A stretch of DNA of 64,000 nt from Candidatus Beckwithbacteria bacterium GW2011_GWC1_49_16 (GCA_001029675.1 CP011210.1:645663-709662); one strand, 5' to 3'; shown: positions 59,837 to 62,874, counted from the stretch's first letter. The notes: a model not told the origin generated them from the sequence alone. A program made the numbers and translations.

Positions 59837-60950
59837 GAGTTTTCCAGACTACGCGAGTGTACATTAAGTAGTTCCAGATCAGTCCCAGAAGGATGCCGAC
59901 CAGGACCAGGGAGTTTTCGATCAAAAAGGAGCGGCCGAAAACTTTGACGCCGGCAAGAAGAGCGATGTTTTGGATGACGATTGAGCCTAAAGACAAAACG
60001 TTGAACTTGACAAAACCGACTGCCAGCTCGCCCAAGCGGGAAAAGGCGAATTTTTTCTCTTTGAAAGTCCAAATATTATTAAGCACAAAGTTAGAAACCA
60101 CGGCCGCTTCGATGGAAAGATTCTGGGCTAAAACTAAAGACAGTTTGAGGCGGAGTAAATTAAAAAAGACTAATTGGACGATGGTGCCTAGTCCGCCGAC
60201 GATCATCACTTTGATTAACTTGGCGCTGTCTCTTAGACGGAGGGAAAAAACTACCCTCAAGGAATCAACAATGTTGTTTCTGGGAAATTTGCTTTTACCC
60301 CGGCTCCGGTCGACAAACTCGATGGGAAACTCGACCACTTTGGCGCCGTAACGTGCCAATTCGTAATAAAGCTGGATTTTGTAGGCAAACTGCTTGGAAA
60401 TTAAGTTATCGAGGTCAATCTTTTTGAGGAAGCTGACTTTGGTGCCCCGGTAACCGGAAGTCATGTCTTTAAACTGGGGGGTGAACAAAACCAAACGGGC
60501 AATCAGGTTGCCAAAGTAAGAGATGAGTTTTCGGTGCAGGCCCCAATTGTCGGGCATTTTGCCGCCGGGGATGTAGCGGGAGCCGACGACAACGTCGGCC
60601 TTGCTTTCTAAAACTTTGATCATTCCGGGAAGGTATTGGGGCTGGTGGGAGCCGTCGGCATCGTATTCAAAGACGGCGTCGGCGCCAATGTTCTCCATGG
60701 CGTATTTGAAACCCTTGATGTAAGCGCCGCCCAAGCCTAACTTTTGGGGGTTTTTAACCAGCTTGATCAATTTTGACTTTTTGGCCAGGTGCGCCACGAT
60801 GTCGGCGGTGCCGTCCGGGGAAGAGTCGTCGACAACTAAGATTTTAAGCTGGTGGTTTTTGATAGTGGAGAAAACCGTCTCTAAGTCGTCTATGGTCTTG
60901 GCGATAGATTCTTTTTCGTTGTAGGTGGGGATAATGACCACGATGTTCAT
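59829..60950 (-). CDS. GT2 Dpm1-like polyprenyl-phosphate mannosyl/glycosyltransferase fused to a C-terminal GtrA-like four-TM domain.
   Basis: It has the [20 protein letters not shown] and [10 protein letters not shown] motifs. The C-terminal roughly 130 aa are hydrophobic ([16 protein letters not shown]…). Confidence 0.8.
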
Positions 60951-61912
60951 GACTGGCGTTCACGTTCAAGATCGGCCTCGACCATGATCTTGACCATGTC
61001 TTCAAAGGAGGTTTTAGGCTGCCAGCCTAAAACCTTTTTGGCGCGGGAGGGGTCGGCGCGCAAGACGTCAACTTCGGCGGGGCGGATTAGACTTTGGTCG
61101 ATCTCGACGTAATCGCGCCAGTTTAGGTCTACCACTTTGAAGGCGATTTCGGCAAATTGCTCCACCGACCAAGTCTTGCCGGTGCCGACGACAAAGTCGG
61201 CCGGTCTGTCTTGCTGAAGCATCAACCACATAGCCTCGACATAGTCGGGGGCGTAGCCCCAGTCGCGCTTGGATTTTAAATTGCCTAAGTTTAACTTTTT
61301 TTGTTTTTTAAGCTTGATGCGGGCGACGGCGTTGGTGATTTTTCTAGTAACAAACTCTAAGCCCCGGCGAGGTGATTCGTGGTTGAAAAGAATGCCGGAG
61401 ACGGCAAAAAGATTGTAGGATTCGCGGTAGTTGACGGTAATCCAGTGGCCGTAGACCTTAGCCACACCGTAAGGGCTCCGGGGATAAAAGGGGGTAAGTT
61501 CGTTTTGGGGGGTTTGCAGGACTTTGCCGAACATTTCCGAAGATGAAGCCTGGTAAACCTTGGTGTCGGGCTTGGCTAATCTTATCGCCTCCAAAATCCG
61601 GGTGACGCCCAGGGCGGTGAACTCACCGGTTAAGACCGGCTGGTTCCAGGAGGTGGGCACGAATGACTGGGCGGCTAAGTTATAGATTTCGTCGGGGGCA
61701 ATATCTTTGACGGCGTGGGAAAGGGAATGCTGGTCAAGTAGGTCACCCTGGACCAGGGTGATTTGGTCGACGATGTCTTTGATCCTGTCGTAGTTTGAGG
61801 TGGAGGTACGCCGAGTCAGGCCGAAAACCTGGTAGCCTTTGGTTAACAAAAACTCGGCTAAATAGGAACCGTCTTGGCCGGTGACGCCGGTGATTAAAGC
61901 TTTTTTCTTCAT
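60947..61912 (-). CDS. gmd: GDP-mannose 4,6-dehydratase.
   Basis: It has [28 protein letters not shown] (Thr/Ser-x-Glu), YGVAK, and NHESPRRG. Confidence 0.85.
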
Positions 61913-62874
61913 GATTTTTTGAGTTGCCCTAAGTCGTAATCGACCATTTTTTTAATCATGGCTTCAAAACTTACCTTGGGCTGCCAGCCCAAGCGGGTTT
62001 TCGCCTTGGTGGTGTCGCCGACAACGGCCTTTGATTCAGTCTTTCTGAAAAACTTCTTATCTATTGTAACAAACTTTTGGTAGTTTAGCCCCAAGTGGGA
62101 AAAAGCCACTTGACAGACATCGCGGACGGTGTGGGGCTGGCCCGAGGCGATGACGTAGTCCTCGGGGCTGTCTTGTTGGAGCATCAACCACATCGCCTCG
62201 ACATAGTCGGGGGCGTAACCCCAATCCTGCTCGGCGTCGAGGCTGCCTAAAGTCAACTTATCGGTAAGCTTTAACTTAATTTTGGCGGCGGTATGGGTAA
62301 TTTTCCGGGTGACAAACTCCAGGCCCCGACGTTCCGACTCGTGGTTAAATAAAATGCCGGAAACGGCAAAGAGGTTAAATTGACTCCTAAAACTTTTGGT
62401 GAGTAAATGGGCGCCGGCCTTGGAGATAGAATAGGGGTCGACCGGGTTTAAGGGGGTGGTCTCGGTTTGGGGGGTCTGCCTGGGAACGCCGAAGATTTTG
62501 GCCGAGGTGGCCTGGTAGAGCCTGGCTTGGGGCAAGTCATCTCTAACCAGTTCCAAAAGGCGGCTTAAGCCCAAAAGGTTGACGTCAAAATAGAGGCTGG
62601 GGATTTCCCATGACTTGGGGACAAAGGTAACCCCGGCCAGGTTATAGATCTCCTGGGGGCGGTGTGACTTTAAAATTTTCTTTAGAGAATCCTGGTTTAA
62701 TAAATCCCCTGTTTCCAAGATAAGTTTATCCTTGACGGCGGCGATGTTTTCTTGACCGATGTCAAAATTCCGACTGACCAAGCCGACGACCCGGTAGTTT
62801 TTTTTTAACAAAAACTCGGCTAAATAGGAGCCGTCTTGGCCGGTGATGCCGGTAATGAAAGCGGTTTTAGTCAT
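61909..62874 (-). CDS. GDP-mannose 4,6-dehydratase paralog with an altered active site (Glu to Lys at the catalytic base position).
   Basis: It has [19 protein letters not shown] and NHESERRG. At the position of the consensus STSELYG, the sequence reads QATSAKIFG. Confidence 0.7.

Follow-up and report, generated by a model that had tools for sequence, protein, structure and literature searches.

A GDP-mannose 4,6-dehydratase-like protein with lysine at the catalytic glutamate position, encoded beside a canonical paralogue in Candidatus Beckwithbacteria

Introduction

The enzyme GMD (GDP-mannose 4,6-dehydratase) carries the fingerprint [ST]-S-E, in which Glu is the only extra catalytic residue that the enzyme needs for dehydration (PMC8987622). 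Its GDP contacts are Asn179, Val190, Lys193, Arg218, Arg279 and Glu282 (PMC9415975; P. aeruginosa numbering inferred by alignment), and GMD scaffolds have been reported to show some 4-reductase activity (PMC9415975). In many other phyla the immediate neighbour of gmd is an Rmd-like gene. The solved GDP-4-keto-6-deoxy-D-mannose reductases (RMDs) are acidic at the position of the GMD glutamate (SSGD, SSEE) and are without the RR loop.

Lysine occupies the GMD/RmlB glutamate position in CDP-glucose 4,6-dehydratase, as well as in the PseB/FlaA1 and PglF/WbpM enzymes, where it is the C5 base; the known lysine-using 4,6-dehydratases all have an aspartate before the lysine ([ST]DK), which serves as the acid (PMC8987622). 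Lysine, and even arginine, is able to serve as C5 base in other enzymes. CDP-tyvelose 2-epimerase (TyvE; 1ORR, 9RL0) is a non-dehydrating nucleotide-sugar short-chain dehydrogenase/reductase (SDR) with the segment Thr124-Asn125-Lys126. TaTyvE coordinates both phosphates through Lys126 and is inactivated by the K126A as well as by the N125A substitution (PMC13098431). Enzymes of the TyvE type are described as interconverting GDP-glucose and GDP-mannose (PMC12188384). The GDP-heptose SDR sets of C. jejuni combine the C4-dehydrogenase Cj1427 with a 4,6-dehydratase and C4-reductases, and are a precedent for dehydrating and non-dehydrating C4-oxidizing SDRs acting on GDP-manno-configured sugars within one cluster (PMC10680097).

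Here, we describe a tandem pair of GMD-like genes from a Candidatus Beckwithbacteria bacterium, a groundwater organism. The pair lies in a window of 64 000 nucleotides, which is the whole stretch of DNA that was analysed. The copy with lysine at the catalytic position is referred to as the K copy, its neighbour with glutamate as the E copy and the orthologues of the K copy as the K family.

The gene pair

The K copy (61909..62874, minus strand) and the E copy (60947..61912, minus strand) were found at precisely the positions at which a sequence-only reading of the window had placed two GMD paralogues. The K copy is upstream and the E copy downstream; each encodes 321 residues, and start and stop codons overlap by 4 nt (ATGA). 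The proteins are 51% identical (165/321) in a gap-free alignment (E = 8e-117) and the genes are 59% identical at the nucleotide level. Both proteins contain the GMD hallmarks listed in that reading, namely ITG(I/V), Yx3K (YSISK/YGVAK) and NHES(E/P)RRG.

Whole-protein scores were compared with the NCBIfam gmd equivalog TIGR01472, for which the curated cut-off is 415 bits. The E copy scored 437.3 bits, above the cut-off, and the K copy 347.7 bits, below it. The E copy also matches P. aeruginosa GMD (1RPN) at 422 bits, groups with the ordinary short-form GMDs in the tree and has SSSE, RR.S, R216 and all of the other GMD hallmarks; it is a full member of the group and a canonical GMD. The K copy is a GMD-fold SDR. 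It matches 1RPN at 318 bits (HMMER), is about 46–55% identical to GMDs and has the extended-SDR fold, the glycine-rich dinucleotide motif (TGxxGxxG), the Ser/Thr-Tyr-Lys triad and NHES-RRG. By nearest relatives the K copy is not an RMD: it matches the RMD structures 2PK3 and 6X3B at only 111 and 62 bits, respectively, against the 318 bits for GMD. Reduction of the GMD product is nevertheless compatible with its sequence.

Lysine where GMD has its catalytic glutamate

The active-site segment of the K copy lies at 62488..62517 (minus strand), with the Lys126 codon AAA at 62497..62499; the corresponding segment of the E copy lies at 61526..61555 (minus strand), with the codon GAA of the catalytic Glu126 at 61535..61537. 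In an ungapped HMMER alignment S124-A125-K126 of the K copy falls on T-S-E of YQASTSEMFG in 1RPN. An AlphaFold2 model of the K copy (pLDDT 95.8) superposed onto 1RPN with a TM score of 0.96 and an r.m.s.d. of 1.5 Å over 322 columns, so that a shift of register at Lys126 can be discounted. Alignment and superposition thus agree with the earlier claim that the catalytic glutamate has been exchanged for lysine. The GMD fingerprint [ST]-S-E is absent from the K copy (S-A-K) and present in the E copy (S-S-E).

The K family comprises about 155 orthologues in Candidatus Beckwithbacteria, Chisholmbacteria and other Patescibacteria. Among 154 members, position 126 is Lys in 151 and Arg in three; it is Glu in all 34 partner copies and in all 75 ordinary GMDs. 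Given this family-wide conservation, Lys126 is more than a chance substitution. Position 125 is Ala in 134 members (87%) and Ser in 20 (13%), and Asp was absent from this position in all 154.

Residues replaced and kept in the K family

The signature of the family is S34, N43, [ST]124-[AS]125-K126 and Q216. The K copy encodes Gln216 (codon 62227..62229, minus strand) instead of an almost universal arginine that binds the diphosphate (Arg218 in the P. aeruginosa enzyme; 'RDW' motif). Position 216 is Gln in 150 of the 154 members (97%) and Arg in all 109 GMDs compared. The remaining five of the six GDP contacts are kept in the K family as N177, V188, K191, R277 and E280. Conservation is 100% for S/T124, Y148, K152, N177-H-E-S180, R183, V188, K191 and R277, and E280 is kept in 141 of 154 members.

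In the loop after strand β2 (residues 34–43; 62746..62775, minus strand) the K copy has lost R34, R35, Ser37 and R43 of GMD. The Arg-Arg-x-Ser cluster at this site, which we take to bind the 2'-phosphate of NADP, is invariant in the 109 GMDs compared and absent from the K family, where R34S and R43N each reach 99%, position 35 is variable and Ser37 is replaced by His, Tyr or Phe. The RR loop is conserved at 99–100%. Helix α5, which presumably lies at the dimer interface as in other SDRs, is remodelled at positions 153–165, and Gln82, conserved in all GMDs compared, is lost.

Altogether the family shows about 40 family-wide co-changes. It is monophyletic with a bootstrap value of 0.905 and was grouped with the partner copies in 0 of 200 bootstraps. 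The functional divergence of the K copy proposed in the sequence-only reading is in keeping with these co-changes, the separate clade and the TIGR01472 score below the cut-off. Judged by these comparisons of sequence, the K family is a conserved, uncharacterized subfamily derived from GMD.

In a wider family of 159 members residue 126 is Lys or Arg and rarely Gln, Ser or Glu. It is basic in 155 of the 159, all 155 of which have a residue other than Arg at 216, and Arg216 is retained by the two members with Glu or Ser at 126; this co-variation of positions 126 and 216 reflects no more than one or two independent events in evolution.

Genomic neighbourhood

Upstream of the K copy is a UDP-glucose 6-dehydrogenase gene (Ugd; 62871..64000, minus strand), the stop codon of which overlaps the K-copy start; the protein has 427 residues in full and the 5' end of the gene lies beyond the window. 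It is TuaD-like (493 bits) and of the UDP-glucose type, with 379 bits to 4A7P versus 195 bits to AlgD. The E copy is followed immediately downstream by a GT2–GtrA fusion gene of the polyprenyl-phosphate sugar synthase type (59829..60950, minus strand), the GT2 part of which matches ArnC weakly. The next gene of the cassette encodes a PMT_2 glycosyltransferase (GT-C, ArnT/YfhO-like; 58382..59836, minus strand). The cassette of Ugd, K copy, GMD, GT2–GtrA and GT-C sits within a glycan island that exceeds 60 kb.

The order Ugd, K, GMD, GT2–GtrA is the same in all K-family loci with sufficient flanking sequence: GMD is downstream in 43/43, Ugd upstream in 37/37 and GT2–GtrA beyond the E copy in 28/28. 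P0121 and P0271, the basal relatives, likewise lie directly upstream of a GMD, with neither Ugd nor heptose genes nearby. As this subfamily always stands beside a true dehydratase, the K copy probably has a sugar-modifying role different from that of its GMD neighbour.

Two further parts of the window are of relevance. A canonical Rmd-like GDP-4-keto-6-deoxy-D-mannose reductase gene (16805..17728, plus strand; 2PK3 E = 1e-51, 6X3B E = 8e-40) lies in the same glycan island, and its orthologues share contigs with K orthologues in at least six other K-family genomes. Like RMD, the K copy is a putative GDP-sugar SDR adjoining GMD and occupies the position that the Rmd-like gene has elsewhere; the co-occurrence of a canonical Rmd-like gene means that the K copy is not the sole reductase candidate, and would make this role redundant for it. 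Five genes at 44789..48402 (minus strand) have their best matches to mannose-1-phosphate guanylyltransferase, GmhB, HddA, GmhA and HddC, all below the curated cut-offs, so that they are assigned as heptose-pathway-like by best hit only.

Tracts of high identity between the copies

The sequence-only reading had also pointed to a stretch of about 50 nt, roughly 90% identical between the two copies, and had suggested gene conversion or a nucleotide-level constraint. The stretch is real (49/54 nt identical), although the two ranges given for it were 2 nt out of register: 61202..61255 pairs with 62164..62217, and the best 54 nt window has 50/54 identities. In codons this tract spans 217–235 (K copy 62170..62226, E copy 61208..61264, minus strand; 52/57 nt identical). 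An equally identical N-terminal stretch had been missed (codons 5–24; K copy 62803..62862, E copy 61841..61900, minus strand; 54/60 nt identical).

For the window pair itself, identical amino acids together with shared codon bias, instead of conversion or nucleotide-level constraint, have nearly an even chance of being the whole explanation of the 54 nt tract. All 19 residues of codons 217–235 are identical between the copies and four of them are Met or Trp. Where degenerate codons encode identical residues, 10/15 are the same in this tract and 74/141 outside it (Fisher p = 0.22). In both tracts the E copy of the same genome is the best of 26 matches to the K copy of the window, by a margin of only 2 nt (in codons 217–235, 52/57 versus 50/57 for the best foreign E copy). 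The pair's longest exact run, of 25 nt (p about 0.045), falls in the N-terminal tract, not in the one noticed first. A small within-genome excess is also present gene-wide (z = 3.3–4.1) and is attributable to genome-specific codon usage.

Against an explanation by codon bias stand the results for the family. In 26 genomes within-genome identity exceeds that of shuffled pairings most strongly in the N-terminal tract (0.829 versus 0.769; z = 7.8), followed by codons 217–235 (0.838 versus 0.803; z = 5.6), while the NHES region, a control of similar conservation, gave z = 4.1. The E copy of the same genome is strictly the best match in eight and seven of the 26 genomes for the two tracts, where about one would be expected. 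Exact K/E runs of 30–78 nt occur in 10/26 genomes, compared with a cross-genome 99th percentile of 29 nt, and at one locus (L004) the N-terminal and 217–235 tracts are identical at 60/60 and 56/57 positions. Short-tract gene conversion thus clearly recurs between the K and E paralogues of the family, in their most conserved segments, and is borderline for the pair in the window. The suggested nucleotide-level constraint finds no support in the orthologues, which vary freely at synonymous sites of both tracts.

At the active site the K/E difference has never been erased by conversion, an argument that the two functions are kept apart by selection. The K/E pair is a small, clear case of homogenization opposed by selection.

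Possible function of the K copy

We tentatively favour a reading, to which we give somewhat less than an even chance, in which the K copy has kept activity as a GDP-sugar oxidoreductase or epimerase, has given up dehydration and uses Lys126 as a charge clamp. An enzyme of this non-dehydrating kind had been proposed in the sequence-only reading, and the variation of residue 126 appears to fit it better than an acid/base catalyst, since a residue that may be Lys, Arg, Gln, Ser or Glu lacks the constancy of an acid/base. The Glu-to-Lys exchange does not by itself entail that dehydratase chemistry is lost, as lysine is an accepted base in CDP-glucose 4,6-dehydratases and enzymes of the PseB/PglF type.

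The K protein would still bind a GDP-sugar and carry out redox chemistry, with the 4,6-dehydratase activity gone. Lys126 would be a positive-charge clamp and not a general base; its target would most likely be the sugar diphosphate, as for Lys126 of TyvE, and by replacing the lost Arg216 it would shift the position of the sugar. The enzyme may share a pathway with its GMD partner. It could reduce GDP-4-keto-6-deoxymannose to a second 6-deoxyhexose epimer, or it could, without dehydration, oxidize or epimerize GDP-mannose, GDP-glucose or GDP-heptose. Its product would supply the adjacent glycosylation system of polyprenyl-phosphate type (GT2–GtrA) and GT-C.

TyvE shares with the K copy the pattern Thr-x-Lys at the same three positions. 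It differs in being distant in sequence (73 bits) and in its nucleotide, CDP, where GDP is predicted for the K copy. The essential Asn125 of TyvE is Ala or Ser in the K family, so that the lysine of the TyvE segment is present without its neighbour, and TyvE keeps R237 and R299, the first of which the K family has lost. A more specific version of the favoured reading, which we regard as speculative and rather unlikely, is that the K family is a new GDP-sugar SDR specificity derived from GMD, a non-dehydrating epimerase or C4-dehydrogenase that converged on the 'TNK' of TyvE, the charge that holds the diphosphate having shifted from Arg216 (C-terminal domain) to Lys126 (catalytic strand), and that it is an obligate partner of GMD in diversifying Patescibacteria surface glycans. 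Candidate activities under this version are GDP-glucose/GDP-mannose 2-epimerase, GDP-hexose 4-epimerase and GDP-heptose 4-oxidase.

We consider it unlikely that the K copy has remained a 4,6-dehydratase, with Lys126 (or Arg) as the single acid/base instead of Glu. Lysine is an accepted base at this very position and one extra residue suffices for dehydration by GMD (PMC8987622), and the K family retains the redox triad and the GDP contacts. The aspartate of the [ST]DK enzymes, which belong to other sequence families and use other nucleotides, has no counterpart, however, in the Ala/Ser at position 125. Arg, Gln or Ser occurs at 126 in members that share the conserved context, Gln82 of the GMDs is also lost, and a human E157Q variant in the PDB is, according to the entry title, a complex with unconverted GDP-mannose. 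Such a dehydratase might act on a heptose, as the window holds the heptose-pathway-like gene set, a likeness to C. jejuni, in which clusters with two different GDP-sugar C4-acting SDRs are known (PMC10680097). On the other side, the solved GDP-heptose 4,6-dehydratase 7US5 matches the K copy at only 81 bits and retains SSSE and the arginine, and there are no heptose genes near the basal relatives. No close sequence relationship to the C. jejuni set was found, Cj1427 being absent from the best 60 PDB matches of the K copy.

The prospects are poorer for a non-catalytic or regulatory subunit that forms heterotetramers with the E copy, lends its RR loop to the cofactor site of the partner and uses its own site only to bind ligand. 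The obligate tandem pairing with translational coupling via the ATGA overlaps would suit such a subunit, as would the remodelled α5 helix at the presumed dimer interface and an RR loop that is conserved while the R34, R35 and R43 of the same protein are lost. An APDY-to-AKDY change common to both paralogues at one locus (L005) points the same way, but is equally explained by gene conversion. Invariance across more than 150 sequences, as seen for S/T124, Y148, K152, the glycine-rich motif and the GDP contacts, would be unusual for a pseudoenzyme, and Lys/Arg at 126 and Gln at 216 are under strong selection.

Very improbable is an Arn-like pathway (Ugd, SDR, GT2, GT-C) in which the K copy is a decarboxylase or 4-epimerase of the nucleotide-linked uronic acid made by Ugd, with Lys126 on the C6 carboxylate: the constant upstream Ugd, a cassette order like Ugd/ArnA/ArnC/ArnT with the weak ArnC match of the GT2, and the suitability of Glu-to-Lys for an anionic C6 speak for it, but the dehydrogenase is of the UDP-glucose type, yet the K copy keeps the GDP contacts V188, K191, R277 and E280, the basal members pair with GMD in Ugd-free clusters, and the known UDP-GlcA decarboxylases, to our knowledge, keep Glu at the equivalent of position 126.

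Surface glycans and annotation

The surface sugars of ultra-small symbiotic bacteria are thought to mediate host attachment, and the product of the K cassette probably decorates the cell surface of such bacteria. The K family could add a new GDP-sugar specificity and could exemplify, cleanly and in nature, a dehydratase scaffold re-tooled by a coupled two-residue charge swap. A 2022 review that tabulates the fingerprints of nucleotide-sugar SDR dehydratases does not list the combination of [ST]-[AS]-K with Gln at the diphosphate-arginine site. Wherever K-family proteins are named in public sources, the name is 'GDP-mannose 4,6-dehydratase'; because the GMD dehydration residue is absent and the curated equivalog cut-off is not reached, they are probably mis-named in hundreds of Patescibacteria genomes.

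Gene pair and position of Lys126

Two 321-residue open reading frames lie in tandem on the minus strand, the K copy at 61909..62874 and the E copy at 60947..61912, with ATGA stop/start overlaps between them and with the flanking genes on either side. The proteins aligned with zero gaps and 51% identity (165/321, E = 8e-117) and the genes with 59% nucleotide identity. The top matches among solved structures were GDP-mannose 4,6-dehydratases (GMDs) for both copies; 1RPN from P. aeruginosa scored 318 bits with the K copy and 422 bits with the E copy. Against the gmd equivalog model of NCBIfam (curated cut-off 415), the E copy scored 437.3 bits, above the cut-off, and the K copy 347.7 bits, below it. 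An identical protein is on record in a public collection from Candidatus Beckwithbacteria bacterium GW2011_GWB1_47_15, of the groundwater Patescibacteria/CPR.

The sequence-only reading had placed a lysine at the catalytic glutamate position of the K copy and had named an offset between the two residues as the observation that would speak against this. In an ungapped HMMER alignment, Ser124-Ala125-Lys126 of the K copy correspond to Thr-Ser-Glu of GMD, the segment falling on YQASTSEMFG of 1RPN. An AlphaFold2 model of the K copy, computed from 79 family sequences (pLDDT 95.8), was superposed on 1RPN with a TM-score of 0.96 and an r.m.s.d. of 1.5 Å over 322 columns, which excludes a register offset, and the assignment of the lysine to the glutamate position was upheld. 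In the GMD fingerprint, [ST]-S-E...Yx3K, this glutamate is the sole extra catalytic residue required for dehydration (PMC8987622). A human E157Q GMD variant is present in the PDB as a complex with, according to the entry title, unconverted GDP-mannose.

Signature and phylogeny of the K family

Of the 120 top-ranking database relatives (61-73% identical to the K copy), all with a readable motif had Lys or Arg at position 126. When 1.84 billion cluster representatives were searched exhaustively, 140 of the best 150 relatives had Glu at the motif position. For residue comparison, 154 members of the K family (the orthologues of the K copy in Patescibacteria) were set against 109 GMDs, of which 34 were partner E copies and 75 ordinary enzymes drawn from many phyla. 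Position 126 held Lys in 151 and Arg in three of the 154 members, and Glu in all 109 GMDs. The loop following strand β2, whose arginine cluster we take as the place where GMDs bind the NADP 2'-phosphate, was altered as well, with R34S and R43N each at 99%, Arg35 variable and Ser37 changed to His, Tyr or Phe. Further changes were S83T, T99N, S125A, M127I, Arg145 to Val, Leu or Ile, S146D, Tyr154 to Ala or Cys together with others along helix α5, R216Q (97%) and P278K. Ser/Thr124, Tyr148, Lys152, Asn177-His-Glu-Ser180, Arg183, Val188, Lys191 and Arg277 were invariant among the 154 members, and Arg182 and Glu280 nearly so. The GDP contacts of GMDs (Val190, Asn179, Lys193, Arg218, Arg279 and Glu282; review, PMC9415975) correspond by our own alignment to Val188, Asn177, Lys191, position 216, Arg277 and Glu280; five of the six are retained, the one replaced being the diphosphate-binding arginine at position 216.

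Sequencing error, a pseudogene or drift was ruled out by a signature common to more than 150 orthologues and by the invariant catalytic triad; judged by its sequence, the K copy is a member of a conserved subfamily and no accident. In a distance tree calculated with the conversion tracts masked, the K family was monophyletic (bootstrap 0.905) and grouped with its own partner E copies in 0 of 200 bootstraps; the K copy therefore did not arise from the E copy by recent local duplication.

Two basal relatives, P0121 (62% identity with the K copy) and P0271, have the Ser34/Asn43 loop of the K family and cluster with it. P0271 retains Glu126 and Arg216 and P0121 has Ser126 and Arg216, and the altered cofactor loop appears to predate the Glu-to-Lys change. 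Among 159 members, Arg216 was absent from all 155 with Lys or Arg at position 126 (Gln in 142, Glu in five, Ala in four, Val in two, Thr and Ile in one each) and kept in both members with Glu or Ser at 126; one member had Gln at both 126 and 216. The pattern looks as if a single positive charge had moved between the two sites in a coupled manner; with very few independent evolutionary events behind it, it is no more than suggestive.

K-family proteins are named GDP-mannose 4,6-dehydratase in every source that names them. The combination of [ST]-[AS]-K with Gln216 is missing from a published table of dehydratase fingerprints (PMC8987622), and no paper dealing with a GMD paralogue or subfamily of the Lys type, or with GDP-sugar genes of Beckwithbacteria, was found in a literature search. 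The family is well suited to enzymological study and to correction of annotation but does not constitute a new kind of system.

Genomic context

Loci were compared on five contigs obtained by exact protein look-up, on one (L065) from a genome collection and on 48 metagenome contigs obtained with a K-motif DNA pattern. The genome-collection scan with the K protein used back-translated motifs common to all GMDs and returned almost only ordinary single-copy GMDs, the loci of which served as the outgroup; a K/E pair was present only in L065. The K-motif DNA pattern was used next on the metagenome contigs, and on viral contigs it gave zero matches.

A UDP-glucose 6-dehydrogenase (Ugd)-type gene lay directly upstream of the K gene at all 37 loci whose flank was long enough, another GMD, of the Glu type, directly downstream at 43 of 43, and a GT2-GtrA fusion after the E gene at 28 of 28, usually followed by a PMT_2 (GT-C) transferase. 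A member from Chisholmbacteria showed the same gene order. The 3' part of ugd is at 62871..63926 on the minus strand (a GTG-start ORF), the full gene, for a protein of 427 residues, continuing past the window end; this protein belongs with the UDP-glucose dehydrogenases, scoring 379 bits to 4A7P versus 195 bits to the GDP-mannose dehydrogenase AlgD. The genes for P0121 and P0271 each directly precede a second GMD gene, in tandem pairs at 4794..6771 of contig L134 and 1724..3704 of contig L136, within a Wzy/GT4 polysaccharide cluster without Ugd; it is therefore GMD, and not Ugd, with which the association is invariant.

A spacer of about 480 nt separates the K and E genes at two loci (L101 and L126), the other loci having an overlap or a short gap. 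On contig L001, a gene at 7825..8724, just past the right end of the window and upstream of ugd, encodes a 299-residue fusion of a riboflavin-kinase-like domain, corresponding to the C-terminal part of RibF, with a type-1 isopentenyl-diphosphate isomerase (NUDIX) domain, and several genomes conserve this fusion upstream of the cassette. A dTDP-L-rhamnose gene set resembling RmlB/RmlC/RmlD is located outside the window a few kilobases upstream of the cassette (L001 2109..4545), and also on contigs L004 and L005.

Proposed role of Lys126 and candidate reactions

Residue 126 is Lys, Arg, Gln, Ser or Glu within one family and one conserved context, which makes an essential acid/base role for it unlikely. 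Lysine is used by some 4,6-dehydratases (CDP-glucose 4,6-dehydratase, PseB and PglF), in which an Asp always precedes it (PMC8987622), whereas Ala or Ser takes that place in the K family. A dehydratase that works with Lys, perhaps on a second substrate, is an unlikely description of the K copy. CDP-tyvelose 2-epimerase, a characterised non-dehydrating nucleotide-sugar SDR, likewise has Lys at 126; Lys126 of its 'TNK' segment coordinates the two substrate phosphates and K126A is inactive (PMC13098431). From the variability of the residue, the lack of a preceding Asp and this precedent, we infer that Lys126 may serve as a charge clamp, with the diphosphate as its probable target, and would compensate for the lost Arg216 and reposition the sugar. 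The K protein would be a redox-competent GDP-sugar enzyme that has lost dehydration. That it is instead a non-catalytic partner in heterotetramers would fit the combination of an invariant RR loop with loss of the 2'-phosphate arginines of the protein itself, and we regard this as improbable. A uronate-acting enzyme is very improbable. The idea of an upstream GDP-mannose 6-dehydrogenase and a lysine binding the carboxylate of GDP-mannuronate was rejected on the UDP-glucose type of that dehydrogenase and on the basal members that pair with GMD in its absence.

The K copy is tentatively described as a non-dehydrating oxidoreductase or epimerase working with GMD, and the K family as a GMD-derived, probably non-dehydrating GDP-sugar SDR that occurs as an obligate partner of GMD within a conserved cassette for surface glycosylation. 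Clusters of C. jejuni in which a 4,6-dehydratase and a non-dehydrating C4-dehydrogenase act on GDP-heptose (PMC10680097) are a precedent for pairing dehydrating and non-dehydrating SDRs; the solved heptose dehydratase 7US5 retains SSSE. Five consecutive heptose-pathway-like genes are present at 44789..48402 on the minus strand, with mannose-1-phosphate guanylyltransferase, GmhB, HddA (GHMP kinase), GmhA and HddC as best matches, all scores being below the NCBIfam curated cut-offs and the names those of the best match only.

An Rmd-like reductase is the immediate neighbour of gmd in many other phyla, and the K copy holds that genomic position. Replacement of Rmd by the K copy was weakened as an explanation by a canonical Rmd-like GDP-4-keto-6-deoxymannose reductase gene at 16805..17728 on the plus strand (2PK3, E = 1e-51; 6X3B, E = 8e-40) and by Rmd-like orthologues that share a contig with a K orthologue in no fewer than six other genomes (contigs paired by equal size: 294409, 157379, 776951, 358919, 386741 and 68646 bases); the K family is therefore not simply an Rmd substitute. 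The motif of the Rmd-like gene is GTAAVY, with Ala where solved RMDs (ISSGDVYG and IGSSEEYG) carry Asp or Glu. Its NCBI name, 'GDP-D-mannose dehydratase', looks like a misnomer.

High-identity tracts and gene conversion

A stretch of high nucleotide identity between the copies had been read beforehand as a hint of gene conversion or of a nucleotide-level constraint. The high identity was confirmed; the two coordinate ranges were 2 nt out of register, and 49 of 54 positions are identical once corrected. The best 54-nt window around this tract has 50/54 and codons 217-235 (K copy 62170..62226) have 52/57; codons 5-24, an N-terminal tract (K copy 62803..62862), are equally similar with 54/60. At degenerate codons for identical amino acids in this genome, 10/15 were identical in the first tract versus 74/141 elsewhere (Fisher p = 0.22), and 14/15 in the N-terminal tract (permutation p about 0.046). 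In this genome taken alone, the first tract is nothing special.

Conversion was tested at the family level with 26 non-redundant K/E pairs, comparing within-genome with shuffled pairings. Within-genome nucleotide identity was slightly higher everywhere (z = 3.3-4.1), a small gene-wide excess that is attributed to shared codon usage. The N-terminal tract gave 0.829 within genomes versus 0.769 shuffled (z = 7.8), the genome's own E copy being strictly the best match in 8/26 genomes; the values for codons 217-235 were 0.838 versus 0.803 (z = 5.6), with the own E copy best in 7/26. The longest exact K/E run was 30-78 nt in ten of the 26 genomes, the cross-genome 99th percentile being 29. Synonymous choices in the tracts co-vary by genome and differ between genomes, as predicted by gene conversion and not by a nucleotide-level constraint; such a constraint, in the form of an RNA or DNA element, was ruled out since orthologues vary freely at synonymous sites. 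Gene conversion is thus recurrent in the K family and only marginally detectable in the window, where the longest exact run is 25 nt (p about 0.045). In every pair the upstream gene keeps a K-type active-site segment and the downstream gene an E-type one, which argues that selection maintains two distinct functions.

On contig L005, both paralogues (6001..6966 and 7058..8044) read DWGYAKDY and not DWGYAPDY, with codons AAA and AAG; the shared change could be due to gene conversion or co-adaptation.

Glycan-biosynthesis island

The window (1..64000), mostly on the minus strand, is a single island for glycan biosynthesis that exceeds 60 kb and takes up an unusually large part of a genome of roughly 1 Mb. 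At least nine of its genes encode GT-C glycosyltransferases of the PMT_2 type, many of them arrayed in tandem; alongside are numerous genes of the GT2/GT4 families, a Polysacc_synt flippase gene and genes for proteins related to MptA_B, GT87 and PTPS. Two further extended-SDR genes are located at 14533..15390 on the plus strand (285 residues, GalE/RmlD-like) and at 20856..21764 on the minus strand (302 residues, GalE-like).
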